Shown one piece after another: positions 1,756 to 63,502 of a stretch of 63,502 nt of DNA. Positions within the stretch are counted from its first letter, which is position 1. The number at the start of each line of letters is the position of its first letter. The DNA lies in the IMG/VR virus record IMGVR_UViG_3300028591_000116. One strand, written 5' to 3'. Both the position numbers and the translations under genes were made by a program. This DNA comes from an uncultured virus (IMG/VR IMGVR_UViG_3300028591_000116) (lineage: Duplodnaviria; Heunggongvirae; Uroviricota; Caudoviricetes). The notes beneath the pieces were generated by a model. That model was not told where the DNA came from and searched no databases. It saw nothing but the letters and a program-made list of their open reading frames with translations.

Positions 1756-1940
1756 CCACTACAACACTTCCACAAACATTTCGGCATTTATTAGTACACG
1801 GAGATGATCCGCAGTCATTATTAGCACCACCCACGCCACATAATGCTCCACACCATAATTGGTGGCCGCAAAACGCTTGACAACTTCTAGCATCACCATA
1901 ATACGGATCTGTATTCATGCAGAAACCTACACAACTTCCT
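1756..1940 (-). other. Cys-rich cassette 1 (GSCVGFCMN...CRNVCGS), right anchor out of frame
   Basis: AGGAAGTTGT at 1940-1931 and GTTGTAGTGG at 1765-1756; 185 bp, not a multiple of 3. Confidence 0.8.
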
Positions 1941-5398: not shown

Positions 5399-5422
5399 TA
5401 ACTTTTTTGTTTTTCTTTTTAA

Positions 5423-5662
5423 CCACTACAACCACCAGTACATCCAGCCCTAGTAGGACTACGACAGTGTGCGCTACAAGAAGTTTGACAACCTCCAGAG
5501 CAAGTGGTGTTAGAACAATCTCCAGCACACCAACCGCTTCCTCCTTGACCAGTAGCACAAATCTCATAACAAGATTGACGCATATTACAGTTAGCGGCGG
5601 AACAATTCATCCAACACATTGAAACGTGACAAGAAGCAGTACATCTATTTACACAACTTCCT
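5423..5662 (-). other. Cys-rich cassette 2 (GSCVNRCTASC...GCTGGCSG)
   Basis: Both anchors; 240 bp, stop-free; no RBS/ATG upstream; lies between two terminators. Confidence 0.85.
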
Positions 5663-8488: not shown

Positions 8489-8692
8489 AGGAAGCTGTGT
8501 AAATGAAAACTGTAAAATACAGTGTCAATGGCCGAGTTGGTGTAATAACATGTGCGGAGGTGTACCTTGTACTAATACATGTGTAAACTCGGATTGTCAT
8601 TATGATTGCATATCTGGATGGAGTAATCAGCGTATACAAACGTGTGATAAATGCTATACTAGGATGTGTGGCGATAGTAGTGGTTGTAGTGG
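8489..8692 (+). other. Cys-rich cassette 3 (GSCVNENCKIQC...DSSGCSG)
   Basis: AGGAAGCTGT ... GTTGTAGTGG; 204 bp, stop-free; between divergent promoters. Confidence 0.85.
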
Positions 8693-23189: not shown

Positions 23190-23264
23190 AGCTATAATAT
23201 TTAAAGAGTTATCTCTACTATACTATATAGATAATATGAACATCAAAAGGTGTATAGAATAAAA
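23190..23264 (-). repeat. Duplicated promoter/leader region (copy A; copy B at 30832-30906)
   Basis: Ungapped 75-bp alignment at constant offset 7642; first 57 bp have 2 mismatches. Confidence 0.85.
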
Positions 23265-30831: not shown

Positions 30832-30906
30832 AGCTATAATATTTAAAGAGTTATCTCTACTATACCATATAGATAATATGAACGTCAAGTATTATATAGA
30901 ATAAAA
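30832..30906 (-). promoter_or_regulatory. Duplicated promoter/leader (copy B): TTGACG-TTCATATTAT...TATAGT
   Basis: Matches 23190-23264; ends immediately before the right anchor of cassette 4. Confidence 0.7.
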
Positions 30907-30907
30907 T

Positions 30908-31261
30908 CCACTACAACCACCGTCAGTTTCCCCGTTCCACGCTTTAGACGCACAACTACCACAATCGCTTAGACAATCTCCAGAACTACCACATTTAACT
31001 CTACACCAAGTGTGACATGATGACGAACAAGATGCTCCACTACCACATCCAGAAGCACAATGTCCCCAACACGAACCGGAACACAAAGGTTTAAAAATAC
31101 AAGCAGAAGTGCACGTGTCGGACGAACAACCGCTTCTCGATCCAGAAGGGACTTTACACGTGCCACCATAGCAATTTATAGCACAGTTAGATCCACAATT
31201 TCCATTCCAACCTAATGTATCGCCGACACAACCACTTGTACATGCATTTACACAACTTCCT
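30908..31261 (-). other. Cys-rich cassette 4 (GSCVNACTSGC...ETDGGCSG), the longest
   Basis: Both anchors; 354 bp, stop-free; last 156 bp identical to cassette 5. Confidence 0.85.
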
Positions 31262-31332: not shown

Positions 31333-34300
31333 ATGGCATCTAATAAAAACTCCGAAATGGATAAATATATAGACAATGGTGAAACAGTAGATGAATCAAC
31401 AAAAGTCTATGATAAAAGCGTCGCGCAAAAAGGAAAATCGAAATGGTCTATAGGATCTGCTGTTAAAGGATTTGTTGGAGACTTAAAAGAAGCATATTAT
31501 GATATTAAAGGAGTCTACTCGGACTTCCAAAAAAAAGCAGCAGATTTATCTAAAAAAGCTAATCTAGACGGTCTTTTAAAGAAATTAGGATTAGGCGATT
31601 CTAAATTATTAAAATATCTTTCTAGTAAATTCGGTTTAAAATCAGGTCTTTTTGACTCTTGGGCATCAGATTTATTGAATGCTGGAATGTCGTTTATTGG
31701 CACTATGTTTGGTGATTTAGGAAACGGTGTTCTTCAAAGTCTTTACACTAAATTAAACAACGCTAATACTTTTGACGTTGTTATCTTAAATAGCGTAGTG
31801 AAACCTTTACGATATACTGGTGCTAATCCTAACTATAAAAATACTTTACTTAGGTGTTGTTTGGAATCAGATATGCCACAATGTTTGGAATACTTAGACG
31901 GTTACAACGGAACTAAATATCTCCATACTAACAATATGTGGAAACGCGGCACTTATGCTGCTAAACACGGTAGCTTTAAAACTGCTAAATATGTCTGTAA
32001 TCAGTTGAACGAAGAACTAAAGAAATACGACAACAACACTGCTACCGGTAATGAAGATACAGCATATTGGTATAAACTCAAAATGATTGATATAACTAAA
32101 ACCGTTTTGGTTTACGGTTATAGTAACTTGACTACCGATATGTGGAACGATTACACTAATGTCAACCAAGATCTTCTTAGAAATTACTCTTATTATGGCG
32201 ATAATGATGTAACGTTTAATAAAAAATTCAAATTCACTAACAGTGATATTAACGTTATGGCCAAAATAGTAAATGTAAATAAATTTGGTACTGATGAGAA
32301 TAACAAGAATCAGTCTAAATTTACTGGTGGTTGGATGGATCCTGGTGCTGGTGTAACTATAGACGTATCAAACATTTCTCATCAAGTGAAATACATTGAT
32401 CCTAGAAACGGCTGTATTAAACAATTATACGTTGTTATGGCAAACGATGTTACTTCAGATGATCGAAGATTGGTAAATCAGGAATTGCACACTAGACTTA
32501 AATATCCCACACTTGATATGCTATCTAAATCTACTTCTAAGATGATCGATACTATGCTGAAAAGCAAAACATACAATGATCTTAGATACTTGATTGATAC
32601 TAATGGTGATAAAAACGGAGAAGGGTTCGTTGCTGGTTTAATTCATAACTCATTAAAAGAATTGCAGCGCGTAAAAGCTCTTAGAACCATAGATGATATC
32701 TACCGTGCTCGTACAACAGTTAATAATCCGGCATCTGATATTGGTGATTTCAACCCGTACGTTGCACCAACAGATAACAATAACACTACTACATCTATCA
32801 GTACATCAACTAATGTTACTCAAAGTGAAGAAGAACAAGAAATAGAAAATATTATCGAAAACAATATCGTAGACGATCAAGCAGCTAAAGATATCGGACT
32901 CACATCTAACGACTTTCGAATCATAAATGTTACAGGAATGTCTCCTGAAGATCAAACTTCTGCTGTTACTTCTATACTTGGAGCTAGCACTGAATTCACT
33001 TTAGCTGATACTAAAACTCTTAAGCGATATAGTGATACTACAAATGCATATGATATAGAGCATACTTATTTATTGTACTGTAAGAATACTCGAGCTTACG
33101 CTAGTACAGTAAGTACTAACAAAGAACGCATATTCAAACAATTAGTTGCTATGAATATGCTGAAGGAGTATTCTTCTAAATACAGTATAGAAGCTCTTAA
33201 ATCTTGGTATGGAGAAACCACTAAAGAACCGGTGTATGAAAGAGATACCAGCGGTAATATAGTTTACGACGCAAGCGGTAACCCTAATACTTTAGGTTAT
33301 ATTTCAACTAATACCCCTGATTCAATAATAAAGGAATTCCTTGATAAATTCAAAAATATTGCTAAATCGATAAAGAAATATTATTCCGATAAAGCTGGAA
33401 ACATAAAATACACTATCACTTTTGATAATCAAGGAATAGGACAAACTCCTGATCCTATCAGAGATATATCTCCTTACTCTACTGTGCCTGCTGATTATGA
33501 ACCAATTACATTAACAGACAGTAGTAAGAAATATGTATTTTTAGGTTGGGCTGAATCTTTTGATTCTGAAACTATCTTCGACTTTGCTAATTCATACATA
33601 TCCAAAGATATCACACTTTATGCTCTTTGGGAAGAAGCAGACAACTATATCTTGGAAGCTAAACTTTTAAGAGAAAATAACTCTACTCTTGAAGAAACCG
33701 TTTATGCTACTATAGACCATTCCACAAAGAGTGTCTACTTCCCAATAAAGACAAAAGAAAAGACTTCTGGAAGTTATATAATCGATCTCACTATCTCAAA
33801 AGGTGCCACAAGTACTATTGTATCAGGTTCTACAGTGTTCTTGTCAGTAGACGGCAATCAGACAGTTGTGGTAACTGATATTTATGGAGAACGATACAAT
33901 TATTCTCTCAAACTTGTAGAAGTTCCAGACGATGCTAAACGCATAGCTTATATAACTAAAGAAGGTGTAATCGCTGGATTAGGTAACAACAAACTGTACT
34001 TAGAAGCATCTAGTCAAGACATCGATCTCTCAAGTTTGACTTGCTCTAGAATAGGATTTAACTTTACTGGTTGGTCATTAATGTCTGACAATACAGGCAA
34101 AATAGAATCTGTATCTTACGAATCTGTTGGTAGTTTCACTAAAATTTATCCTAAGTTAGTTGAAAACGAATACATTATTACTTACAACGATAAACTTGGA
34201 TCTACTTTCTCAGGTAAACATGAAGCTAATTATCCTACAAAGTTCACATATAAAAAAGGTGCGAAGCTTGATACTCCTGAAAAAACAGGTTATTACTTCT

Positions 34301-36078
34301 TAGGATATTATTCAGATCCTGCATGTAGTGGCTCTTCTATATTACGAAATATTCCTAAGTTCTATGGACAGAGCAATATAACTGTTTATGCTTCTTGGGT
34401 TGACCAGACACTATACGATATTCAAAACAATGGAATATCAGTAGACGGTTATGCTATAAACATAAACGATATCACGTTCTATACAAGATTTATTACAGAA
34501 TCTGGAGAACAATGGGCAGTAACAAATACAGGTTTAGCTAGATATTCTTCTGCTGGCGATAAGATCTCACAGGCTAGAGTTGCTAAAAACAACACTCCTC
34601 TTGGAATAGCATTTGTTTCTAATGCTAACATTTTCCTTTGTGTGGCTAAAACTGCTGGTGGAAAAATCAATCTGTATTATTCAAAAGACAGGGGATTAAC
34701 TTGGACTTTCGCGATGGAAGTTACAGAGTTTAATATTCAGTTCTTTGTGGGTACAGGTTTCGAAACGCTTGAACAATTGTCTTTCTTCTTAAGAGTATTG
34801 TATAATGGTATTCTTTTTGAATTGAAAAACAATAAACTTTATGCCAACGATAATTTGTTCTTAGATTTCAATACAGTTACTGCTCTTAATGGTAAAACTG
34901 TATCTGGTATATCAGTTACATTGGACGGCGCTTTCTACTTACTAATTGTAGGTGTGGGAGTATTCAAACTCACATTCAACAACTATTATTTCGATATAGG
35001 AGTCGCTGATAATCCTAGTAATCCTGATCCTGAAACTCAAGAAACCTACGTTGTTCCTCCAGAACCAGAAAATGTTTCATTCGAATTAGTCAGCAAATGG
35101 AAAGATACTGATAATTATTCATTGGATACATCTTCTGTTGGATCTGCATACAATAACGTTAATACATCATCTTTCAGTTCTGAACTCAATGACGACTTTG
35201 ATATTGATGATCCTGAGATTATTGCTAACATTCTTAGGAACAACGCCGATACACACGTGGTCATTCGTACATTCCGAAATGCAGGAACTCTGTCTTACGT
35301 CGTATCATCTGATGGTAAAACTGTTCCTGTGTATGGACCTAATGATCCTGGTGATTGGTTCTGGGAAGTTAACGAAGAAACAATAAATGATGATCTTAAA
35401 CCGCCAGTATTATGGTTGTCTGGATATAACAATAAAGGAAAATATATTCCTGATATTACTAATCCGGTAGAAGAGGTTACTCTTGAAAGAAAAGACAAAC
35501 CTATAATACGAGAAGTTACAGTTAAATCAGGCAATTTATATGATTATCATGAAGAAATCATTACTCCTGATAACTGGAAATATTATATCGGTTGGAATAA
35601 GAAGGTCGATGGTGATGTAAACGGTTTGAAACTTACCCAAGAATACATGAACACTTATTGGAATCAGCCTAACAAGCAAAAAGAAACTTGGATGGTTAAG
35701 ATCGATAAGTACGAAATGATTAACGATGACGAAGGCAAACCTCTATATCATAAGCGATTCGACGAAGCATATCAAGATGATGAAAAATTAAAAATAGTTC
35801 CTTCTGAGGATTACAATAATTACCAAACAACAAACTATGGTAATGAAGATGATAAACGTACAGCATACTACAATATGATTAAGAATGAACAGAAGAATAC
35901 TGCTGATGCTTACAAATCAAAGTATACTGTAACTCAAAACGCAAACGGAACTACTCGCTATGATGGAATTACTGAAGAATTTTATAAGTATATTACTGGA
36001 GACTGTAAAGACGATGCTGACAAACAAGAAACGATCTACGCAGCAAAACATCCAACAGATCCAGAACCAGGAAATTAG
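31333..36078 (+). CDS. Large virion protein with InlB B-repeat (Listeria-Bacteroides repeat)-like domains
   Basis: YTITFD...YVFLGW...DITLYALW and TPEKTGYYFLGYY...NITVYASW repeats; YYSKDRGLTW Asp-box-like motif; GAGG RBS; GACA-N6-TG at 31278-31289. Confidence 0.65.
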   Translation: MASNKNSEMDKYIDNGETVDESTKVYDKSVAQKGKSKWSIGSAVKGFVGDLKEAYYDIKGVYSDFQKKAADLSKKANLDGLLKKLGLGDSKLLKYLSSKFGLKSGLFDSWASDLLNAGMSFIGTMFGDLGNGVLQSLYTKLNNANTFDVVILNSVVKPLRYTGANPNYKNTLLRCCLESDMPQCLEYLDGYNGTKYLHTNNMWKRGTYAAKHGSFKTAKYVCNQLNEELKKYDNNTATGNEDTAYWYKLKMIDITKTVLVYGYSNLTTDMWNDYTNVNQDLLRNYSYYGDNDVTFNKKFKFTNSDINVMAKIVNVNKFGTDENNKNQSKFTGGWMDPGAGVTIDVSNISHQVKYIDPRNGCIKQLYVVMANDVTSDDRRLVNQELHTRLKYPTLDMLSKSTSKMIDTMLKSKTYNDLRYLIDTNGDKNGEGFVAGLIHNSLKELQRVKALRTIDDIYRARTTVNNPASDIGDFNPYVAPTDNNNTTTSISTSTNVTQSEEEQEIENIIENNIVDDQAAKDIGLTSNDFRIINVTGMSPEDQTSAVTSILGASTEFTLADTKTLKRYSDTTNAYDIEHTYLLYCKNTRAYASTVSTNKERIFKQLVAMNMLKEYSSKYSIEALKSWYGETTKEPVYERDTSGNIVYDASGNPNTLGYISTNTPDSIIKEFLDKFKNIAKSIKKYYSDKAGNIKYTITFDNQGIGQTPDPIRDISPYSTVPADYEPITLTDSSKKYVFLGWAESFDSETIFDFANSYISKDITLYALWEEADNYILEAKLLRENNSTLEETVYATIDHSTKSVYFPIKTKEKTSGSYIIDLTISKGATSTIVSGSTVFLSVDGNQTVVVTDIYGERYNYSLKLVEVPDDAKRIAYITKEGVIAGLGNNKLYLEASSQDIDLSSLTCSRIGFNFTGWSLMSDNTGKIESVSYESVGSFTKIYPKLVENEYIITYNDKLGSTFSGKHEANYPTKFTYKKGAKLDTPEKTGYYFLGYYSDPACSGSSILRNIPKFYGQSNITVYASWVDQTLYDIQNNGISVDGYAININDITFYTRFITESGEQWAVTNTGLARYSSAGDKISQARVAKNNTPLGIAFVSNANIFLCVAKTAGGKINLYYSKDRGLTWTFAMEVTEFNIQFFVGTGFETLEQLSFFLRVLYNGILFELKNNKLYANDNLFLDFNTVTALNGKTVSGISVTLDGAFYLLIVGVGVFKLTFNNYYFDIGVADNPSNPDPETQETYVVPPEPENVSFELVSKWKDTDNYSLDTSSVGSAYNNVNTSSFSSELNDDFDIDDPEIIANILRNNADTHVVIRTFRNAGTLSYVVSSDGKTVPVYGPNDPGDWFWEVNEETINDDLKPPVLWLSGYNNKGKYIPDITNPVEEVTLERKDKPIIREVTVKSGNLYDYHEEIITPDNWKYYIGWNKKVDGDVNGLKLTQEYMNTYWNQPNKQKETWMVKIDKYEMINDDEGKPLYHKRFDEAYQDDEKLKIVPSEDYNNYQTTNYGNEDDKRTAYYNMIKNEQKNTADAYKSKYTVTQNANGTTRYDGITEEFYKYITGDCKDDADKQETIYAAKHPTDPEPGN

Positions 36079-41513: not shown

Positions 41514-41699
41514 AGGAAGTTGTGCTAAAAATACTTGTATCAAACATTGTGCTTCTGGATGTGGTAGTGGAGCATCTTGTTCGTCATCATGTCACACTTG
41601 GTGTAGAGTTAAATGTGGTAGTTCTGGAGATTGTCTAAGCGATTGTGGTAGTTGTGCGTCTAAAGCGTGGAACGGGGAAACTGACGGTGGTTGTAGTGG
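41514..41699 (+). other. Cys-rich cassette 5 (GSCAKNTCIKHC...ETDGGCSG)
   Basis: Both anchors; 186 bp; 41544-41699 identical to the reverse complement of 30908-31063. Confidence 0.85.
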
Positions 41700-41715
41700 T
41701 TAAAAAGAAAAAAGA

Positions 41716-43185: not shown

Positions 43186-43395
43186 AGGAAGTTGTTTAGG
43201 TCGATGTGGACATAGTTGCGCTTGGTCATGTAGAGCATCTCCTTGTGAAACTAGTTCTGGGTGTTATGATCATTGTGCTGGAAATGGAGGCGGGACTATG
43301 TGTGCTGATGGAGGTTGTAATAACTCGTGTGCGATATGTGTTTCGACTTGTTCTAATTGGTGTTGGAATATTGGTGCTGGCTGTGGTTGTAGTGG
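43186..43395 (+). other. Cys-rich cassette 6 (GSCLGRCGHSC...GAGCGCSG)
   Basis: Both anchors; 210 bp, stop-free. Confidence 0.85.
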
Positions 43396-47790: not shown

Positions 47791-50700
47791 ATGCCTTATA
47801 CTTCTGAAGAATTAATTAATGGATTCTATCAAGATAACAACAACTACGAAGAAATTGGCGAACTTCATGCCAATAGTAAACAAGCAGTTGTTGGTCGTAT
47901 TGATAGTAGATATAATTCAACTAAGAAAATTTCATTACAGGCTCCAGATTCAGACAGATTAATTTATAATTTCTCTTCTGATTCTAAAGTAAATGACGTT
48001 GCTATTCGTTCTGCTTACGACAACCTCACTGAAAAAACGATGTTTGTTGGTAAAGATTTTCTTGCTGTATATGATAGCGAATCAGGAAACTTCGTTCTTA
48101 AAGAGCCTCATGAAGTACTAAAGATTCTTATTAATCCTTTTGATGCTAAAATTGATGCTGGTCTTGGTGGTCTCGTTGACGAAAATATTACTCACCTTAC
48201 ATACGATCAGCTCGATTTCGTTTGTAAGAGTTTGAAATATGTAGTTTCTGCTGATAAATACTTCTTCATTATTTCTGAACTCAATAATGGTCACAGTGTT
48301 ATTTGGAAGTTTGATCCAGACACATTAAGGATTAGTAAATTCAGACCTAAAGATTTCTACGATGGTCCTGGCGCAGAAACGATTCTCGCTAAACCATTTA
48401 TCTATAATAGTGTAATGTATATTTACACTAAAACTACCGAAAATAAAGTAAGAGTTTGGTCTTGTAACGTGAACGATGACAACTCCAATACTCGTTTCGT
48501 TTATTCAGACGTTCTTGGTGAAGCAAACGGTATTGGATCTGTTTCAGCCAACAGTTTCGGATACATTATTGATAATGTAAACGGTACCGATGTGATTAAA
48601 GCATTCAATATTCACAATGGAGAACTCCGAGCAGTTCATTATCCTATCGGTGATATAGACAGTGTCGTTCAGTACGAAGTACAAGACGTTGAAGGAACTG
48701 CTGAAGACTACACCAACAACTCAATCAAATACATCAAGAAAGTTGGATTAACTAATAACGTACACATCATTATGCTTCTTAAAACTGGCTTGATGAAGGT
48801 TATCGATAACGGTTATTCTAATGACGCAATTCAGATTAAAACTCGTAGAGGTTTTAATTGCAAAGCTTTTGTAAAATATTTAGAAGGACGTCTTGATGGA
48901 GAAAATCACAACTATCCTATTGTGAAATTGTACAATGACGTTGGAAAATGTCGAGTACTTACAAGCGATGAAGGACAGTACAATTATGGTACTCTCAGTA
49001 CATCAGGTAACGCTGCTGTTGATGTAGTAGCATTTACAGACAAAGATGAACTTCTTCTTAACTTTGAGAATGCTTATGATATCATAGGATACACTGAATA
49101 TGGTAAGAAAACTATCATATTTGGATGGTTTAATGAAAATGGAGTAATTAAACCTCTTATTAAAGAGATTGATCCTAAAAGAGAAGGATATTCTGTAACT
49201 GAAAAGACAGTAGAACAGTCTGAAGTAATTCGTCCTTTCCACACAGGTCTTGAACCTGATTCTGGTATCAGTATAGTTAAGAATGTTCCTTTTGGAAACA
49301 CTAAAACTGTACGCGTAAAAGTAACACCACATATTGGTGAAGAAGCTAAAGATAATGAAGATCTCTATTTCAGAGAATCTAACAATCTTAACGAAGACGG
49401 AAAATACACAACAGGATCTGTCCTTTGGAACGCTCTTAAAGAATCAGGAATTCCTTACAATACACATGTAAGAACAATCGGACGCATTATACTTGATGGA
49501 TACGACATTCCTATCGAAAGTGTTCTTATTACTCGTCCTGATGAATCAAAAGACTACGGAAGTGTTCTTCTTTCTTTTGATAAATTATTTGATATTACTG
49601 CTCTTGACCAAAAATATTTAAAACTTGGTAACGTTCTTTATCCTGGAATTTTATTTAAGAACAACAAAGGATTCTTGAACGATGCAATGATTTCAAATGT
49701 TTACAACATCGACAGCACATTTGCCTACGACGATGCTAGTAATGGTCAGATATTTGAAGATCTCTCACTTTCTATCAAATCAGCTATTATTCTTAATGAT
49801 ACTGAAGATCCTATTATGATTATTGCTTCTAGTAATGGTAAAATCTCAAGTATCAATATGAACACTGGTAGTTATATTACTGCTAGCGGAACTGAATTTG
49901 GTGAGAATGCTCCTAATATCACAAGTAGAGACATCCCATATAACTGGGTTAAAGATGGTGAAATTGTTGCTCTTATTAAGAGTAATAGTAAACCTGCATT
50001 CTTTGTTCTCTATGCTTCTGGTAAGATTGTAGAAATACATTACGCTAATCAGTTTGTAATTTCTGTTATAGAACATGGACATTACGTTTCTGAATCTGAC
50101 GGATATAATCTTGACACAGTATATGCTGTTAAAGGAAATACTCTTGCTTATTATATAAATGATGGAAGCAAGAAACTTAATCTCTTTGATCTTGATTCAG
50201 CAACAACTATTTCAGATAACTTAGACGATTTCATTAGTCTTCCTAGTGCAAATAGTCTTTATATTAACGTAAACGGAGATTTCTTCTATATCCACGGAAC
50301 AAGTCTCATTAAGTTTAATCCTATTGCTGGATCTTATACTACTTTTGCTAGCAATCTTCCTTCTGGTTCTAACATGTTATGTTACGATTTCAATGATCGT
50401 ATTTATATTTCTAATGGAACAGAATTGAAGTATGTTGAATTATCAACAAGACAAGTTCAGGCTAGAAATATTGCTGGAATAGATTCATACAATGGATTCT
50501 TGGTTTATTATAACAATAAGCTTTATACAGTAAATACTGCTGGATATATTTGCTACATTGAAGACGACGATTCAGTTGTTGTTACAGAAACCGAATACGA
50601 TTACAACTCTAGAAAACTTAAACAGATTTACTTTGATGAAAAAGAAGTAGATCTAGTTTTTGTAACTAGTAGTCTTGTTACACGTCTTATTATTTCAAAC

Positions 50701-53700
50701 ACAAATGATATTTCTACTTATGGATATGGCATAAACACAACAATCAATACAGATTGCTCTATCTATTATGACGGAAACAAATACAGATATGTTGATTCTC
50801 CAGTAGATCACTCTGTTACGATATCAGATGTTATTCGCGAAATAACTAGCGAAGCCTCTGTTCCTTCTAGCAATGGAGAAGAATTTATTGGATTCAATAA
50901 CGATATAATTTATATTCGTTACAACAACATGGTTTATGCTAAAGATCTTAGAAAAACTTTGCTTAACTATATCAACCGTCTGTCTAATCACAATATTACC
51001 CTCAGAACAGAAAACACTAAACCTGTTACTGCTCTTGGGTTTATTGATAATGGAAACTCTATTGCTATTTGTTTCAACGACGGTGCTATTGAAAGCGTAT
51101 ATCTACCAGAGTACAATGCTACTGATGGTTATTATGCTTCTAATTACGGAGATATCATCGAGAACTATTCTAGAACTATCTTCGAACAGCACTCTATAAC
51201 ATTGGAACCAGAAGAACCTGGTGAAGCAGTGGGCGAAGACGAAACTATTTCTCTTGCAAATATTCCTAAGCCTAGTAAAATGGGATATTCTTTCATTGGT
51301 TGGAGTGATTCACCTAGTGAAGAAGATATGATTTCTATTAACCAGGCTGCTGCTAGTGATAGGGAGTTACATAATGGAGATGTGATCTATGCAGTATACA
51401 AAGATAACCATGAAGAATACGTTGACAGATGTGTTACTCGAATGTATGCTAAAGCAGGAGAATTCTTCAATACCGGTGTAATTTCTATTAACCAGATAAA
51501 AGACGATATTTATTTCCAGTCTTCTGATAAGAGTATCAGATGGGCTAACGATATTGGTGTTTTCTTTGAAGGTCACGACGAAAATTTCACAGGAAAGAAC
51601 ACTTCTAAGACTGGCGTATATAATGGAAATAAACTTGCTTCCAAGTTGTTCATTAATGGCGCTGGAAGTATAAATATAGGAAAATACGTTTTCTATATCA
51701 ACGGTTACAATCCTTCAGACACTAATCCTCAAACAACCGTTCATAACGGAATTGTTGTATACGATAGTCAGAATGACGAATACTCGGTAATGAGTAAAGG
51801 TACAGATAAACTTCACGGTACTATTCTGTCAAGAATCTTCCCATTCTGTTATTATTATAATGGATACATTTATATCTTCGGTGGTCTTAAAAGAAAAGAT
51901 ATTCACGTTGACGGAAACAACTACAGTAAGTTCAATGAAACTTATAAAATCGAAAGATTTGATATCAGAACCGGCGAAAGTGTTATTCTTGCTGCTAAAT
52001 ATGGACCTAATGGGCATGATCCTGATACTGATGATAATTATTCAGACATTAACACTATTAGGCATTTGAATTATGAAGAAAATGCATATTTTGATGAAAA
52101 TCATCAAAACGACAAAGTGTTGACTGGTATTATAATACATGCAGAGAATTTTGAAGGCGAAGGTTATTACTATAGATTTTCATTAACATCTGAAAATGCT
52201 ATTTGCGAATACGATTCTAATGATTCTAACCAAATGTTTGAAGATACTTTAGCTGAATTAGGATTTGATAAAAATACACGTTTCTATATAGGAAAATCAG
52301 ACAGAAACGAAGACGATTTTGGTATACGTTGTAGTAATAATATTTTTTATGATCTCCCAGAAGAAGCAAAACTTAACGGTTTTGATATAACAGAACCTTT
52401 TAAAGTCGATGATCATATAGAATTCTTAATTAGAACTTCTAAAGAATTTATTCGTCTCGCTTATTATAAAACCGACGATCATGATGGTGAATTTGTTGAG
52501 ATGTCTAGAGTCAAATACTCTGAGAATAACGCTCTAAACAAATTATATTTTACTCCTCTTGAACACTGTAAATATCACGTATCTAAGCTTATGAATGTTG
52601 GTGAGAATGGAGAATTAATGTTGGACAATGCTCCTATTATCAGTTCTTCTATACTCAACTACACTTATGCTTATGGAAAACAGATATTCAAACCGTTTGA
52701 TCAAGAATTCTTTGAGATCCTTTCTGAAAGAGAATGGACTCCTAAAGGAGAAAATCTAGCTGTCGAGTTTGTAGATAATACAGAGTTCTTATTCAATATA
52801 GAAGACGGTAAAAAACTCAAGATTAAAAAGATATCTGCCGACGGAAGTACTTCTGAAGTTTCGACAGGAATAAACGGCGACAAAGTTCACACCGTTGTTG
52901 GTTCAGATGATATTATCACTTGTTTCATTACTAGAAGCGACGATATTAAATTGACCAACATTGTATCTTATAGTATAGATAAAGGAGTTGCTGTTTCTAG
53001 AAACTTTACTGGTGAATATCGTGCTCCTGATGTGTTCTTCTACGAAAGCATTACTAAAAAGATTTTCGCAAGCACAGGTACAAGTGTATTATGTTTCACA
53101 GGAATAGATATCAATTCTTTGGATGCTGGTCTTGGCGTTTCTATAAGTGAAGCAGAAATTGATGGTGTTAGAGGTTTTAATTCAGTAGATGAAAACCACA
53201 TAGCTCTCTTCAATGTATTACATGATAGTGCGAAAACAAGAATTGTAACCGATACTTGTAGATTTGATACTATTAGTGGAGCAATCGTTGGTGAAGATAA
53301 TTACTCTACTTTAGATATAAATCTCGATACAAGCGATAAAGACATAAAAATTGTTCAGGTAAACGGTGAATTTATTATTGTTTGTAATGATAATGAATAT
53401 CTGTTTATTGACGACTCAAATAACGTTGAATCTGTCAATAATAAATCTCCTGAAAATCAAGCAGTTTATCAAATTGACGACGACGGAATTAGATTTATTT
53501 CTGGTTCTAAACGTTACAAACAGTTCAGACTGCAAAAAGAATTTCTTGCTGGAACAAACATCATTCCTATCGGACAGAATTTCAGTAAGCTCGATAATGC
53601 ATACATTACTCAGAATGATTCTGAAATATTTGTATATGCTAACAGAAATATCTTTGCTATTGATAAGAAAACAAAAACTGTTTCTACTTATGAAGGAACA

Positions 53701-55707
53701 GACGGATCGCTTGTTAATTATGGATACGACTTTAAGATTGTAGGAATTGCCGCAAGCAATAACTCTGTGTATTTGTTTGATGGTGTCAATTCTATGGTAA
53801 TGAAGCTTGATCTTGAAAGAAAAGTTCTTTCTAAAAAAATCAATATGCATAATCTTAATTCTACATCTAACGTAGTTTCTGATATGCATGGAGACATCGT
53901 ATACTTTGCAAACGAAAGTTCATTGTATAAGATCGTTAATGATGAGATCATCTTTATCGCTTCTGGTCTTACCGAATTAAACATCACATCTTTGAGATAT
54001 ATAGAAAACAACGACACTATTAGATACTCTGCTATCAATAATAATGGAGACGTTGTTAAGATATATAGCTTCAACCTTTCAGATTCTAGTATAACTGAAG
54101 TAGGAAGTTTGAACACTCCTATTCGTGCTGAAAATAGAATTACTGATTATGCTAATATTGGCATGAGACGGTATTCGGCTAACTTTGCACTTGACAAATA
54201 CGGTAATCTGACTATTGTTGGTGGAAGCAAGAGCTCTGTAGATTATAATCCTACACACGTTACTACTATTGACGGTACTAACTTCAACAACTTTATTGAA
54301 ACCGTCGCAGATGAAAACGCTAAGAAAATGGTTGCTCTTCGTACAATTGTAGATGATAACCATATGTATTCTCTTGGTATTGGAAACAATGATGTAGTAA
54401 ACGTAGTATTCTCTAATAGAAACGAGAATGATATAAAAGGAACTGCCGAATTTAAAGTAGGTTCTGTTACAGACAATAAACGTTATTTCACACACAATAA
54501 CGAGTTATTCTGTATTGAGGTCGCAGCAAACTCATTCAGAGTTATGAAATATAACAAAGAAATTAAAGAGTTTGTCATTTACTCTCCTGAAGCAATTGAA
54601 AAGACAGGAACTTATGTTTCTAGTCACGCTTATTCAGACGGAACGATGTATGCTGTATTCTTGACCACTAATGGTGGAGAAATCAAGTTTAATGTAGTAT
54701 GCTATAACCTCAATACAAAGAAGCACGTTTCTAGTGTTACAGAGACAGTATATACTTCTCTTAATACTAGCATTGGAAGTTCTCTTAAGATAATCGATAA
54801 TGGTTCTTGGAACGGAAAGTATTTCACTACTATTCTTGGAACTGGAACTGTATCTGATAGTATCTTAGTTACAGTAAACGTTTTGAAACTTGAAGGAATT
54901 AAAGTTCTTGGAAGAACTATTAGCTCTTCTGGTGGAATCAATAACAATTCTGCTGTATATTTCAATGACAAACTGTATAGCTTTGGTACAGAGAACAATG
55001 TCTATAAGACTAAACTTACAAACATCGACTTGAACAATACAGAAATTGTTAATGTAACACAGGTAGCTAATGGCGGTATCAAAAATGATAGAGTCACAGG
55101 TTCTAGTACAGCAATAGTTTCTGGTTCTCGCATGGTTGTAACAGGCATTTATGAACCTAGTGAAATCTCAAATGTTAGTAGAAAATTCGCTGTTTCTAAT
55201 ACAGAAATTAAACAGAAATCTTTGAATAACAATAAACTTTTAATTCTTCCTGATAATAGAATTGGTATCGGAAACGGTAACAACTCTAACTCAGAAGCGC
55301 CTACAGTTTATGATATAGCCAAGACACCTGTGAAATCTATTGAGTTCTCAAACGAACTTGCTATTAGAGTTTACTCTGGTGTTAATGAAGATATTATGGT
55401 TTCATTCAACCCTAATACAAACGATGTGTATTACAGTCTCAAGATTTCTCGCGAATACGGTTCTTCTATTAGAGATCTGGTTAAACTCAATGACAACAGT
55501 TATGTGGTTCTTCACTCTGATACTCCTCGCGTTTCTACTCTCGTAATTAATACGAATGGAACACTCTCTTTCAAGAGATACGACGGAGTTCTTCTTGGTG
55601 AACCTATTAACACTGGAACAAATATACATACTATTCAGGAAGCAGACTTTACAATGCTCTTCGATAGTGAAATGGACGAATACGCTTTGCGTCAGGAGTC
55701 CGTTTAA
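47791..55707 (+). CDS. Very large beta-rich virion protein (beta-propeller/Kelch-like repeats, one InlB B-like repeat); possible tail fibre/baseplate
   Basis: 2638 aa; YYNGYIYIFGG Kelch-like motif; IPKPSKMGYSFIGWS InlB-B-like motif. Confidence 0.6.
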   Translation: MPYTSEELINGFYQDNNNYEEIGELHANSKQAVVGRIDSRYNSTKKISLQAPDSDRLIYNFSSDSKVNDVAIRSAYDNLTEKTMFVGKDFLAVYDSESGNFVLKEPHEVLKILINPFDAKIDAGLGGLVDENITHLTYDQLDFVCKSLKYVVSADKYFFIISELNNGHSVIWKFDPDTLRISKFRPKDFYDGPGAETILAKPFIYNSVMYIYTKTTENKVRVWSCNVNDDNSNTRFVYSDVLGEANGIGSVSANSFGYIIDNVNGTDVIKAFNIHNGELRAVHYPIGDIDSVVQYEVQDVEGTAEDYTNNSIKYIKKVGLTNNVHIIMLLKTGLMKVIDNGYSNDAIQIKTRRGFNCKAFVKYLEGRLDGENHNYPIVKLYNDVGKCRVLTSDEGQYNYGTLSTSGNAAVDVVAFTDKDELLLNFENAYDIIGYTEYGKKTIIFGWFNENGVIKPLIKEIDPKREGYSVTEKTVEQSEVIRPFHTGLEPDSGISIVKNVPFGNTKTVRVKVTPHIGEEAKDNEDLYFRESNNLNEDGKYTTGSVLWNALKESGIPYNTHVRTIGRIILDGYDIPIESVLITRPDESKDYGSVLLSFDKLFDITALDQKYLKLGNVLYPGILFKNNKGFLNDAMISNVYNIDSTFAYDDASNGQIFEDLSLSIKSAIILNDTEDPIMIIASSNGKISSINMNTGSYITASGTEFGENAPNITSRDIPYNWVKDGEIVALIKSNSKPAFFVLYASGKIVEIHYANQFVISVIEHGHYVSESDGYNLDTVYAVKGNTLAYYINDGSKKLNLFDLDSATTISDNLDDFISLPSANSLYINVNGDFFYIHGTSLIKFNPIAGSYTTFASNLPSGSNMLCYDFNDRIYISNGTELKYVELSTRQVQARNIAGIDSYNGFLVYYNNKLYTVNTAGYICYIEDDDSVVVTETEYDYNSRKLKQIYFDEKEVDLVFVTSSLVTRLIISNTNDISTYGYGINTTINTDCSIYYDGNKYRYVDSPVDHSVTISDVIREITSEASVPSSNGEEFIGFNNDIIYIRYNNMVYAKDLRKTLLNYINRLSNHNITLRTENTKPVTALGFIDNGNSIAICFNDGAIESVYLPEYNATDGYYASNYGDIIENYSRTIFEQHSITLEPEEPGEAVGEDETISLANIPKPSKMGYSFIGWSDSPSEEDMISINQAAASDRELHNGDVIYAVYKDNHEEYVDRCVTRMYAKAGEFFNTGVISINQIKDDIYFQSSDKSIRWANDIGVFFEGHDENFTGKNTSKTGVYNGNKLASKLFINGAGSINIGKYVFYINGYNPSDTNPQTTVHNGIVVYDSQNDEYSVMSKGTDKLHGTILSRIFPFCYYYNGYIYIFGGLKRKDIHVDGNNYSKFNETYKIERFDIRTGESVILAAKYGPNGHDPDTDDNYSDINTIRHLNYEENAYFDENHQNDKVLTGIIIHAENFEGEGYYYRFSLTSENAICEYDSNDSNQMFEDTLAELGFDKNTRFYIGKSDRNEDDFGIRCSNNIFYDLPEEAKLNGFDITEPFKVDDHIEFLIRTSKEFIRLAYYKTDDHDGEFVEMSRVKYSENNALNKLYFTPLEHCKYHVSKLMNVGENGELMLDNAPIISSSILNYTYAYGKQIFKPFDQEFFEILSEREWTPKGENLAVEFVDNTEFLFNIEDGKKLKIKKISADGSTSEVSTGINGDKVHTVVGSDDIITCFITRSDDIKLTNIVSYSIDKGVAVSRNFTGEYRAPDVFFYESITKKIFASTGTSVLCFTGIDINSLDAGLGVSISEAEIDGVRGFNSVDENHIALFNVLHDSAKTRIVTDTCRFDTISGAIVGEDNYSTLDINLDTSDKDIKIVQVNGEFIIVCNDNEYLFIDDSNNVESVNNKSPENQAVYQIDDDGIRFISGSKRYKQFRLQKEFLAGTNIIPIGQNFSKLDNAYITQNDSEIFVYANRNIFAIDKKTKTVSTYEGTDGSLVNYGYDFKIVGIAASNNSVYLFDGVNSMVMKLDLERKVLSKKINMHNLNSTSNVVSDMHGDIVYFANESSLYKIVNDEIIFIASGLTELNITSLRYIENNDTIRYSAINNNGDVVKIYSFNLSDSSITEVGSLNTPIRAENRITDYANIGMRRYSANFALDKYGNLTIVGGSKSSVDYNPTHVTTIDGTNFNNFIETVADENAKKMVALRTIVDDNHMYSLGIGNNDVVNVVFSNRNENDIKGTAEFKVGSVTDNKRYFTHNNELFCIEVAANSFRVMKYNKEIKEFVIYSPEAIEKTGTYVSSHAYSDGTMYAVFLTTNGGEIKFNVVCYNLNTKKHVSSVTETVYTSLNTSIGSSLKIIDNGSWNGKYFTTILGTGTVSDSILVTVNVLKLEGIKVLGRTISSSGGINNNSAVYFNDKLYSFGTENNVYKTKLTNIDLNNTEIVNVTQVANGGIKNDRVTGSSTAIVSGSRMVVTGIYEPSEISNVSRKFAVSNTEIKQKSLNNNKLLILPDNRIGIGNGNNSNSEAPTVYDIAKTPVKSIEFSNELAIRVYSGVNEDIMVSFNPNTNDVYYSLKISREYGSSIRDLVKLNDNSYVVLHSDTPRVSTLVINTNGTLSFKRYDGVLLGEPINTGTNIHTIQEADFTMLFDSEMDEYALRQESV

Positions 55708-58312: not shown

Positions 58313-58510
58313 AGGAAGTTGTAGTGGATGTAGAACTTCTTGTAGTGAAGCTTGTAGTAATAACGGAGGTTGCTCTCCTAAATGCTCTAGTTGGTGTTAT
58401 ACAGGGTTTTGTCAAGGATCTTGTGTTTATAATTGTCAAGGTTGTACTTATATGTGTAATATAAGCGGTGGCGGATGCGGAAATACCTGTACGTCTGGTG
58501 GTTGTAGTGG
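58313..58510 (+). other. Cys-rich cassette 7 (GSCSGCRTSC...CTSGGCSG)
   Basis: Both anchors; 198 bp, stop-free; in-frame TAA six codons upstream with no start in between; absent from the ORF track. Confidence 0.85.
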
Positions 58511-58566
58511 TTAAAAAGAAAAAAAATAACTCTACTAACACTTTTGTGCTTTCGAGTTATTCTGAA

Positions 58567-58875: not shown

Positions 58876-58938
58876 AAATACCTCCTAAGTATTCTCTACA
58901 ATAATAATATGAACGTCGAACACTATATAAAATAAATT

Positions 58939-59166
58939 CCACTACAACCACTATTACAAGAAGCAGCACAACCAGCGTGTCCTTGAGAGCAATCTCCATT
59001 ACATGCTTGCCAACCACAATGTGCGGTCCCACAAGTTGAACCATTATACGTCCAAAAATTACAATCCCAAGCACATCCAGCACACGATTGGCATACTCCT
59101 GAACAAGCTGTTACTCCATAGCATGATTTAGTACAACCTTCCATACATGCACTAAAACAACTTCCT
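58939..59166 (-). other. Cys-rich cassette 8 (GSCFSACMEGC...CNSGCSG)
   Basis: Both anchors; 228 bp, stop-free; directly after a terminator U tract. Confidence 0.85.
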
Positions 59167-61486: not shown

Positions 61487-61580
61487 ATATTACCTCACTT
61501 ATTAGTTAAATAATATATAAAGAAAAAAGAAGCCGACACCGAGGCCTGTTTCTTATATATTCTTCATTAAATAAATTATA

Positions 61581-61835
61581 CCACTACAACCACTAGTACA
61601 TGCTGAAGTGCATACGCCAGAGCAACCGATAGTACAACCAATATGACAATACTCCCAAGCACATCCCGGTGTACAACTAGGATCGCAAGAAGCAGAACAT
61701 GAGTTCGCGCCAGAACAATGTCCAGTACATGCTATACGATAATGACACGCCGACGAACAACTATGACCACAATATCCAGGCCAATCGCGATCCTCACCTG
61801 AGCTAGTAGTACAAACTGACGCTACACAACTTCCT
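61581..61835 (-). other. Cys-rich cassette 9 (GSCVASVCTTSSGEDRDWPGYC...CTSGCSG)
   Basis: Both anchors; 255 bp, stop-free; directly after a terminator U tract; absent from the ORF track. Confidence 0.85.
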
Positions 61836-61846
61836 AATAAAAGAAA

Positions 61847-61872
61847 AAGAGGAGCTCAAAAGAGCTCCTCTT
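61847..61872 (-). terminator. Intrinsic terminator of the large Cys-rich gene
   Basis: AAGAGGAGCTC-aaaa-GAGCTCCTCTT with an A-tract on its left. Confidence 0.75.
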
Positions 61873-61909
61873 ATAATCATAAAGATTCGTCAAAAATGTG
61901 TTCTAGACC

Positions 61910-63502
61910 TTACTGGTTAGTCTCGTATGTAGTAGAATCATTATCAGTAGAGCTATTAATTATAGCGTTGCCAGCTTTATACAAAACACCAGCGTCTCTA
62001 TATGAAGCGAATGCACTCCACGTACCACCATATCCAGCAATACTTACAGGAGCACGAGTAAACTCGCCTTCATTATCTTTAATGTAATATTCATTACTTT
62101 CAACGAAGGTTTCTCCAGCAGCTACCTTAATCAAAGCTTTACCGTCCATAGCTACAACCATATTACCAGTACTTTCATGGAATGTATCAGGAGCACGAAC
62201 ACGGCCAGAATCAGCAGGAATAGCGTCGGTACTAGTTACACTACTAGTTCCTCCGCTCGTTACCATAGCACGTTCTTTATATTCACGTTTAAGCATATAC
62301 AAAGTAATATTACGAACAGTACCCTTACCTCTAGAACCAAGAGCCGCATAGAAAGCATCAGCCTTAGTAGCAGTAGGATCGTTTTCATAATTATACTCGG
62401 TATAAATATATGGATCGCCATCGACACCAGAACCCGAACGAGTATAATAGGTTATGCCTTCATCATACTCAAAATCTTCAGGAACAGGAACATATTCATT
62501 CTTATTCAAGATAGATTCTTTACCGAATTCAAATGCCTTAGGAGTTTTGACTATAGTACCACTACCGTCAAACTCACCATTATATTTACGCTCATGATTT
62601 TCAGACGTATAAGGAGCATCATTCAATGCGCCAGGTGTAGTAGCGAAATCGTTATCATATGGAGTATTAGGGAATGAAGGATCATATCCATCTTTTCCTT
62701 CAGCTTTAGGACCATAATCGTCGGTACCTCGTTCAAATTTTTCACCAAGTGTATGAGGAGGTTCAGCTTTAGGATTAAGATCAAATACCTTATCCTTAAA
62801 AGTAGCAGCTTTAGTAGTCATACCTTTACAACCACTTTCACAACCAAACTTACAAGCGCTTACACAAGTATCATTACAGTTATTTATGCATGATGTACCA
62901 CATGCATCATAACATGTATTACTACATCCTACAGAACAAGTCCAAGCACAACCATCATTCTTACAAGAACCTAAACAAGAAGTTTGGCACTTATTCTTAC
63001 AAGCTTCAGATGAACACTCAGAATAACAAGAATTATCACAGGTGCCAACACAAGCGCTTCCGCAACCGAACTTACAAGCAGTATCAATACACTCAGTAGA
63101 ACATGTATTAGCACATTTAGCTTCAGTACAGCTACCGCCACAAGAAACGTTAGAACAGTCAGCAGCATTTCCACAGGCTCCGCTACACTCGGTTGAACAA
63201 CCGTTTGAGCTACACGTATTTATACAACCGGCATCAACACATGTGCTTCGGCAAGTAGTCTTACAAGAATCACCGGTACAGTTAGCAGAACAAGAAGATC
63301 CACAAGAGGCGTTCTTACAAGATGTATTACATCCAGTAGAACAAAGTGATGATCCAGAACCACTAGAACAGCCTCCAGAACAAGAAGCAGAACCACTAGT
63401 ACCGGAAGAACAAGCTCCCGAACAGCCTCCACCACATGCACCAGACGATCCGGAACCACTACAACCACCAGGACCATAACTTCCACCTCCACCTGTTTCA
63501 TA
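61910..63502 (-). CDS. Large Cys-rich (CxxxC-repeat) protein, 5'-truncated by window; candidate expression locus of the cassettes
   Basis: Frame open from 63502 (YETGGGGSYGPGGCSGSGSSGACGGGC...CKFGCESGCKG) continuous with the 303-aa ORF at 62821; contains GGTGGTTGTAGTGGT in frame at 63469-63455. Confidence 0.8.
   Translation of the reverse strand, partial: YETGGGGSYGPGGCSGSGSSGACGGGCSGACSSGTSGSASCSGGCSSGSGSSLCSTGCNTSCKNASCGSSCSANCTGDSCKTTCRSTCVDAGCINTCSSNGCSTECSGACGNAADCSNVSCGGSCTEAKCANTCSTECIDTACKFGCGSACVGTCDNSCYSECSSEACKNKCQTSCLGSCKNDGCAWTCSVGCSNTCYDACGTSCINNCNDTCVSACKFGCESGCKGMTTKAATFKDKVFDLNPKAEPPHTLGEKFERGTDDYGPKAEGKDGYDPSFPNTPYDNDFATTPGALNDAPYTSENHERKYNGEFDGSGTIVKTPKAFEFGKESILNKNEYVPVPEDFEYDEGITYYTRSGSGVDGDPYIYTEYNYENDPTATKADAFYAALGSRGKGTVRNITLYMLKREYKERAMVTSGGTSSVTSTDAIPADSGRVRAPDTFHESTGNMVVAMDGKALIKVAAGETFVESNEYYIKDNEGEFTRAPVSIAGYGGTWSAFASYRDAGVLYKAGNAIINSSTDNDSTTYETNQ

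Follow-up and report, generated by a model that had tools for sequence, protein, structure and literature searches.

A candidate expression site with dispersed, start-less cysteine-rich cassettes in a jumbo phage genome

The gene open at the window edge

The window, i.e. the whole stretch of 63,502 nt that was analysed, has 34% GC. It belongs to a jumbo phage and carries terminase-like, phiKZ gp29PR-like, tail tube, divergent DnaB, primase and RNA-polymerase-like genes. The best named matches of the DnaB protein belong to Bacillus and Staphylococcus jumbo phages (~25% identity). Run X1, a sheep gut metagenome, contains 0.99 of the words of the window, the highest value among public runs, and may be the source sample; all results given for X1 rest on ~88% of the run, some records having been removed by a filter. 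Two very large probable virion genes lie at 47791-55707 and 31333-36078; one encodes a protein of 2638 aa with weak Kelch/WD40 matches, the other a protein of 1581 aa with Listeria-Bacteroides repeats. The gene at 8762-16321 (2519 aa) probably encodes a tape-measure protein or a virion lysin; an M15 peptidase domain is located towards its C terminus.

The gene studied here, referred to as the expression gene, is encoded on the minus strand (61910..63502); only its 3′ part is included in the window. As the original prediction proposed, its frame is open from 63502 to 61910 and comprises 530 codons, which is 227 more than the 303 counted from the listed ATG. From the edge inwards, all on the minus strand, the following parts are distinguished. 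Variable segment: only its end is visible (63470..63502; YETGGGGSYGP). Right anchor: GGTGGTTGTAGTGG (63456..63469), in frame; positions 63469-63455 read GGT GGT TGT AGT GGT (GGCSG). Constant ladder: 211 aa including 46 Cys (62822..63455), mostly CxxxC, with 33 of the 45 spacings equal to 4. C-terminal domain: free of Cys (61910..62821), with two Tyr-rich units, GITYYTRS at 62458-62435 and SNEYYIKD at 62098-62075. All of these elements had been proposed from the letters alone and were confirmed. A terminator-like hairpin (61847..61872, minus) separates the gene from the nearest cassette, c9. In the homologous protein P0006, a constant N part of 303 aa is found further upstream; the N domain of the homologues was not found in the window. 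At 24/33 nt or more, the last 33 nt (63470-63502) match neither the rest of the window nor any fetched locus. A 170-nt piece from an RNA library covers 62661-62830; it is not proof of transcription.

Silent cassettes and their anchors

Nine Cys-rich cassettes (c1 to c9; four on the plus strand and five on the minus strand) are scattered from 1756 to 61835 among the terminase, sheath, tube, helicase and primase genes. Four are antisense to both neighbours: c1 (1756..1940, minus), c5 (41514..41699, plus; 55 aa between anchors), c6 (43186..43395, plus; 63 aa) and c7 (58313..58510, plus; 59 aa). Two are located in divergent gaps: c3 (8489..8692, plus; 61 aa) and c4 (30908..31261, minus; 111 aa). 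The other three immediately follow terminator-like hairpins: c2 (5423..5662, minus; 73 aa), which lies between two hairpins, c8 (58939..59166, minus; 69 aa), behind a hairpin at 59210-59188, and c9 (61581..61835, minus; 78 aa). No in-frame upstream start codon is present in six of the nine cassettes, and the remaining three lack a Shine-Dalgarno (SD)-like word. The commonest Cys spacing is 4 in all eight intact cassettes (c2-c9). These eight are stop-free, and their anchor-to-anchor length is always a multiple of 3; c1 was excluded from this count, its right anchor being degenerate and off frame. c4 is a mosaic: a unique 5′ part is followed by 156 nt that are identical to the end of c5, and the junction is not at an anchor.

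The right ends of c2, c5 and c7 are, as predicted, the same 15 nt as in the expression gene, in the same frame; c4 has 14 nt in common with the anchor of the gene, and c3, c6, c8 and c9 have 13. The right anchor word GGTTGTAGTGG is found in nine exact copies in the window (11 with at most one mismatch), against a mean of 0.35 and a maximum of 2 in 100 shuffles; the nine exact copies are the ends of eight cassettes and the anchor in the expression gene. The left anchor AGGAAGTTGT has eight exact copies, each at the head of a Cys-rich frame; with one mismatch the count is 14, which is weakly above chance (shuffle mean 4.66; 14 reached in 1/100). All nine cassettes begin with AGGAAG(T/C)TGT, c3 carrying the left anchor variant AGGAAGCTGT. 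None of the 13 other GCS/GSC motifs, found in cassette interiors and in the expression gene, uses the anchor codons, which indicates that the anchors are conserved at the DNA level. In the relative G001, one of five GCS/GSC motifs has GGA AGT TGT codons and one is the variant of c3; a left-anchor-like word can thus arise by chance in such genes. No inverted-repeat arms are visible by eye at the anchors.

Some DNA outside the anchors is also shared. The right flanks of c1, c4 and c8 have a common promoter-like block (including ACGTTCATATTAT; 1640-1755 on the minus strand, 30832-30906 and 58904-58938), which also occurs at 23190-23264, where there is no cassette. At c1, ~110 nt of this block are extra relative to the related locus L025, as if copied in along with the cassette. 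Past the right anchors of c2, c5 and c7 (5404-5438, 41686-41712 and 58495-58529), 13-20 nt are in common (TTAAAAAGAAAAA), a stretch that is partly absent at c2 in the related loci L025 and L026; this sharing suggests slot-to-slot copying beyond the anchor.

Some features of the cassettes recall a process acting on RNA or peptides. Like splice acceptors, their left flanks are rich in T and have AG as the last two letters; c1 has an ATG four codons upstream, retained in L025; and a putative maturase is encoded by G001. The cassettes would then be trans-spliced between N and C transcripts or encode their own small radical-SAM-modified peptides. This explanation is very improbable. P0006 is a gene call on assembled DNA in which all three parts are joined, the nucleotide directly 3′ of the right anchor varies (T, A or G), and the cassettes are antisense, in divergent gaps or behind terminator-like hairpins, without SD-preceded starts. 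Spliceosome-like joining was also considered and rejected.

Constant ends and variable segments in homologous proteins

The original prediction placed a left anchor in the gene, upstream of the visible segment. Such an anchor was found, at the protein level, in a relative: P0006 (881 aa) has GSC at residues 301-303. Its layout is a 303-aa N part ending with GSC, a 56-aa segment, GCSG and the C part, which differs from that of the window at two of the first 215 residues. The left anchor within an expression gene is known at the protein level only.

The segment preceding GCSG is not invariant, which was the other point on which the prediction depended. Eight junction sequences (window, P0001, P0003, P0006, P0013, P0014, P0015 and P0017) include seven different segments, even behind identical C parts. 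The C parts of P0001 and P0006 are identical (522/522 aa), as are those of P0003 and P0014 (510/510 aa), and in both pairs the segments are unrelated. Likewise, the N parts of P0005 and P0006 are identical at 302 of 303 positions and are followed by unrelated segments. The N part (a helical domain of ~160 aa and ~145 aa of CxxxC ladder) is found through GSC in five proteins (P0005, P0006, P0023, P0061 and P0063), with four different segments. P0001 and P0006 are both recorded on a contig of 81,186 bases; they may represent two C parts in one genome, or two assemblies.

Segments and silent cassettes have related contents. CANVTCKSQA is found both in c2 of L026 and in the segment of P0017, and the segment of P0061 is 85-87% identical over 39 aa to that of P0003/P0015; cassette classes therefore cross between silent slots and the gene. 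The segments of P0023 and P0061 have 22 aa in common and then diverge, while those of P0061 and P0063 (both on 25-kb contigs) differ solely in the first two residues after GSC. Mosaics with junctions inside cassettes are thus seen in c4/c5, in P0023/P0061 and between the c2 cassettes of L025 and L026.

Among the five anchored N-part proteins, only P0006 continues into the C part. P0005, P0023, P0061 and P0063 stop after GCSG, in Cys-poor tails of 2, 22, 160 and 160 aa, respectively, which, judging from their residues, may be read-through of hairpin flanks. Conversely, the C part of P0013 is preceded by a left flank that looks silent, and in the window genome too the DNA upstream of the segment could be a silent-type flank instead of the N part. 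The sequences of P0001, P0003, P0014, P0015 and P0017 begin within the segment, as would be seen both with split genes and at contig ends.

These split forms are what reciprocal site-specific exchange would produce. Left anchors would recombine with left anchors and right with right, by single crossovers: a first crossover would split the gene and invert the intervening DNA, giving N part + cassette + silent flank and silent flank + cassette + C part, and a second would restore the order with two cassettes swapped. With every slot placed between transcription units, the split states might be viable. The split anatomy of four of the five anchored N parts and of P0013 is the strongest result against the copying of cassettes into the gene, and it argues for reciprocal exchange together with the presence of cassettes in both orientations. 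Joints located away from anchors, i.e. the c4/c5 duplication and the other mosaics, argue against it, as do the anchors devoid of visible inverted-repeat arms.

Six relatives do not carry this anchor pair: P0020, P0022, P0024, P0025, P0062 and the G001 gene. P0025 and P0062 are 40-62% identical over residues 280-480 and mostly 80-100% identical elsewhere; the ladder middle is therefore hypervariable even without anchors. P0024 and P0022 combine an N domain of the P0006 type (90-100% to residue 240) with a different ladder and a shorter C domain, without anchors; they represent a second way to swap the 3′ half. A single origin of the anchored forms is neither indicated nor contradicted by the trees: two changes are obtained in both, and the C-domain tree is also compatible with one.

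Cassette slots in relatives and in metagenome runs

A search of metagenomes with the tube protein gave nine loci. Cassettes were found in two of them, L025 and L026 (90% identity), and none in the DNA covered at the other seven. At c1, the window and L025 are identical over the last 47 nt through AGGAAGTTGTGT and unrelated afterwards, the slot of L025 holding an unrelated in-frame cassette. At c2, both flanks are alike in the window and in L026 and the content is unrelated. L026 is devoid of c3, its site being empty. As the gene order around the c1 and c2 slots is kept, their content has changed without net inversion. The right anchors of L025 and L026 are GGGTGTAGTGG (3/3), those of the window GGTTGTAGTGG (9/9 intact ones): anchors thus change together within a genome.

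In X1, a single Logan contig covers 58528-63469 with zero differences and passes all anchors of c8 and c9; another covers c7 entirely. The first stops at the first base of the 14-nt anchor of the expression gene, an event whose crude, after-the-fact chance is ~0.5%. If the expression site were mixed and the donors stable, assembly would be expected to break at the anchor of the gene and to pass the silent anchors, as seen here. It can instead reflect a lack of cover: this is one contig end only, and the last depth bin (11.1 vs 13.2) is compatible with no cover past 63469. In X3, which is closer to the window, one contig spans 57691-59213 and carries c7 and c8 with their content kept; relative to the window, at least 8 codons have synonymous changes and at least 6 have replacement changes, none of which touches a Cys or makes a stop. 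A second X3 contig (record 29) has a c7-like right flank (58498-58561) behind another Cys-coding segment (..CDIEAKCVYS GCSG), from a paralogous slot or a second strain. Another departure from the window is seen in X3 at 61541, 40 nt from c9, where the contig continues as other DNA; c9 and the gene may therefore lie elsewhere in that strain. The region 61557-63502 is barely or not covered in X2, X3 and X20, a coverage hole that proves nothing. Contig joints with sides of 21-24 nt were excluded.

These slots bear on reciprocal exchange in two ways. Slot contents that differ between relatives, with sharp ends at the anchors, would be expected from it. However, both neighbours are kept at all four checkable slots (c1 in L025, c2 in L026, c7 and c8 in X3), and the X1 contigs are unbroken at the anchors of c7, c8 and c9. 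Reciprocal exchange is regarded as unlikely, but it is a serious alternative and the main one.

A further alternative is the lack of any programmed switch. The ladder middle would be a hot spot of ordinary recombination among co-infecting relatives, the cassettes being stranded copies and the change occurring over evolutionary time. The hypervariability of the anchor-less P0025/P0062 and the unchanged content of c7 and c8 in X3 fit this proposal, and the alleles compared always come from different records, never from one clone. It is nevertheless improbable, given the retention of frame and both anchors in 8/8 intact cassettes while other GCS/GSC motifs lack the anchor codons, the unrelated segments on 100%-identical constant parts, the excess of synonymous change in c7 and c8, and the joint change of anchors within a genome.

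G001 (195 kb, 70% complete) has its gene at a contig end, without any exact left anchor or cassettes in its sequence, and its gene order is too scrambled for a breakpoint test. At this end (L022, 13700-15466), long internal tandem duplications are found in the Cys ladder, and the contig ends inside the ladder. Searches with the C domain, P0005 and alignment A2 gave no confirmed relative in viral, metagenome or genome contigs, and the C domain has no match in 50,697 phage records. Anchor-pair patterns matched no stretch in viral_contigs; these patterns are weak, as they caught only 2/9 and 4/9 of the window cassettes. A flank-pattern search gave eight loci, none with a Cys-rich cassette. The DnaB search gave no viral locus, and the tube search none in genome_contigs.

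Nature of the encoded protein

No Pfam, NCBIfam or PHROG match was found for the expression-gene protein, and none in NCBIfam for P0006. By sequence, the protein resembles the targets of CXXX-repeat radical-SAM systems, a likeness that the earlier reader had missed. The top Atlas matches are clusters of PF27846 (tSAM_targ_Cxxx_rpt, 'modification target Cys-rich repeat'), mostly viral, with a score of 0.89; 53% of their members carry the family, which makes this a lead only. PF27846 is precomputed on P0003, P0025 and P0062. No match reaches a curated cut-off of the CXXX-repeat families. Atlas gives no usable match for the C domain.

No maturase was found in the window. A 681-aa enzyme of G001 has TIGR04115 as its best model (E 1.9e-49; 169 bits, vs a cut-off of 350) and is encoded ~69 kb from the Cys-ladder gene; this radical SAM/SPASM gene (L024, 409-2454, minus) has an apparent intein near its N terminus. 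A radical SAM match above cut-off at 167 kb in G001 was rejected as a maturase, since it looks like a ribonucleotide-reductase activator. In phage MT835573, a CxxxC protein and a radical SAM gene lie between Ig-domain and tail-fibre-like genes; in Erwinia phage Asesino, virion genes are neighbours of a pair of radical SAM genes preceded by two small CxxxC frames.

A repeat of P0049, a protein that is tail-like by PHROGs, aligns with the first Tyr-rich unit (hhalign 93.9%); the unit is common to two tail-like proteins. The expression gene is not within a tail module in the window or in G001. AlphaFold models are poor (mean pLDDT 49.5 and 47.9), with confidence limited to the N domain and some stretches of the C domain. 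Foldseek gave no match at E <= 0.001, and the best VIA Z was 6.2, without a fold match. PDB sequence matches were rejected as homologues, as they reflect Cys composition. On balance, the protein is somewhat probably a virion appendage, which would likely be cross-linked; it may be a fibre or an adhesin, as the original prediction suggested.

Proposed mechanism

In the proposed reading (probability about 55%), this jumbo phage has a cassette-replacement system: the window gene is its expression site, and a silent library dispersed over the genome feeds it. That cassettes are exchanged at this site in a programmed manner is considered probable. The gene would comprise three parts: a constant N part ending with GSC, a variable Cys-rich segment of 55-111 aa and a constant C part made of GCSG, a ladder of ~210 aa and a domain of 303 aa. 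The start-less library would be kept in gaps between transcription units, each cassette being bounded by a 10-nt left anchor and a 13-14-nt right anchor that preserve the frame and the Cys register. Cassette DNA would replace the segment in the gene and, occasionally, the content of another slot, the replacement ending either at the anchors or at short homologies within cassettes. The exchange would run within one population while the phage replicates, as copy-in gene conversion carried out by recombination proteins of the phage itself. The ladder would be cross-linked by a phage radical-SAM enzyme, and the protein would form an appendage of the virion, facing the host surface with its variable middle.

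If the exchange is programmed, copying in is rather more probable than reciprocal crossover, because flanks stay, content changes, mosaics form and only the anchor of the gene breaks assembly. It entails that the split forms are assembly chimeras or intermediates; an assembler can presumably produce split joins when the loaded cassette duplicates its donor. No donor-recipient pair is available in one genome, since the loaded 33 nt have no copy among the nine cassettes and are uncovered in X1. Also counted against the proposal are P0024, the possible presence of two C parts in one genome, the position of the gene outside any tail module, the lack of family matches for its protein and the lack of a maturase in the window.

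Anchors of 10-14 nt are short for RecA-type pairing, a point in favour of reciprocal site-specific exchange. No recombinase match was found among 42 window ORFs (small ORFs not all included), which counts against the reciprocal and the copy-in scheme alike; PF00589 is absent from the cassette-less G001. A more speculative and rather doubtful proposal is a dedicated two-anchor exchange machine: a new recombinase would read two sites of 10-14 nt over a genome-wide library and swap the middle of a radical-SAM-stapled Cys-ladder appendage. If so, one virus would carry chemically cross-linked binding loops as a library to switch between, and exchanges left half-finished would shut off or shorten the full-length protein. 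Exchange between sequences that are alike only over 10-14 nt at each end would imply a recombination activity that deserves to be sought.

Comparison with known systems

Diversity-generating retroelements are phage systems that diversify one protein region from silent template DNA. They produce adenine-mutated copies of one template, whereas the segments of the phage locus are whole unrelated sequences. Membership was rejected: the segments are unrelated or mosaic, and there is no reverse transcriptase match in the window.

Gin, Cin, Min and Rci are names encountered in tail-fibre and shufflon inversion systems. The invertible tail-fibre loci of phages (Mu-type) and the PilV shufflon (PMC9881135) resemble the phage locus in that short sites allow the in-frame joining of a constant part to one or another silent segment, with a probable change of host-binding specificity. 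In these systems the C terminus is swapped, in one compact locus beside the invertase. The phage locus differs by its internal segment, its two different anchors, its donors, which are scattered among core genes over at least 60 kb, and the lack of any recombinase match in the window. It is therefore not assigned to this group, as neither a compact locus nor a single type of site with C-terminal swapping was found.

The CXXX-repeat radical-SAM system (maturase: TIGR04115; targets: TIGR04114, TIGR04117, PF27846) likewise has a Cys at every fourth residue. The phage protein differs from its targets: it is much longer, has a 303-aa C domain and an exchangeable middle, and its gene is far from the enzyme gene (~69 kb in G001). 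In the literature covered (titles and starts of abstracts; subscription literature mostly outside the scope), no experiment on TIGR04114/04115 and no description of a dispersed cassette library in a phage were found. The cassette system would give a handle on phage CXXX-repeat radical-SAM proteins, showing which ladder part is under pressure to vary and providing ~20 natural variants. To the compact invertible loci and the retroelements known to provide programmed diversity in phages, a dispersed library that feeds the middle of a gene would add a third route.

The closest likeness is with bacterial antigenic variation by gene conversion, as described for Anaplasma msp2/p44, Borrelia vlsE and vmp, and Neisseria pilS to pilE (PMC4534519). 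In the msp2/vlsE/pilE systems and in the phage locus alike, conserved 5′ and 3′ parts enclose a variable centre, donors devoid of a promoter are scattered through the genome, short conserved homologies mark the ends, and segmental mosaics occur, donors included. The phage locus differs in being phage-borne and in its donors, which are mostly unrelated apart from the 10-nt and 13-14-nt anchors and the Cys register; its records also include many split gene forms. Constant ends with a variable centre, start-less donors, short bounding homologies and segmental mosaics were all found. A dispersed silent library of this kind would be a viral counterpart of bacterial antigenic variation. The best reading is that the phage locus works like the msp2/vlsE/pilE systems, of which it is a candidate member with partly segmental, anchor-bounded replacement.
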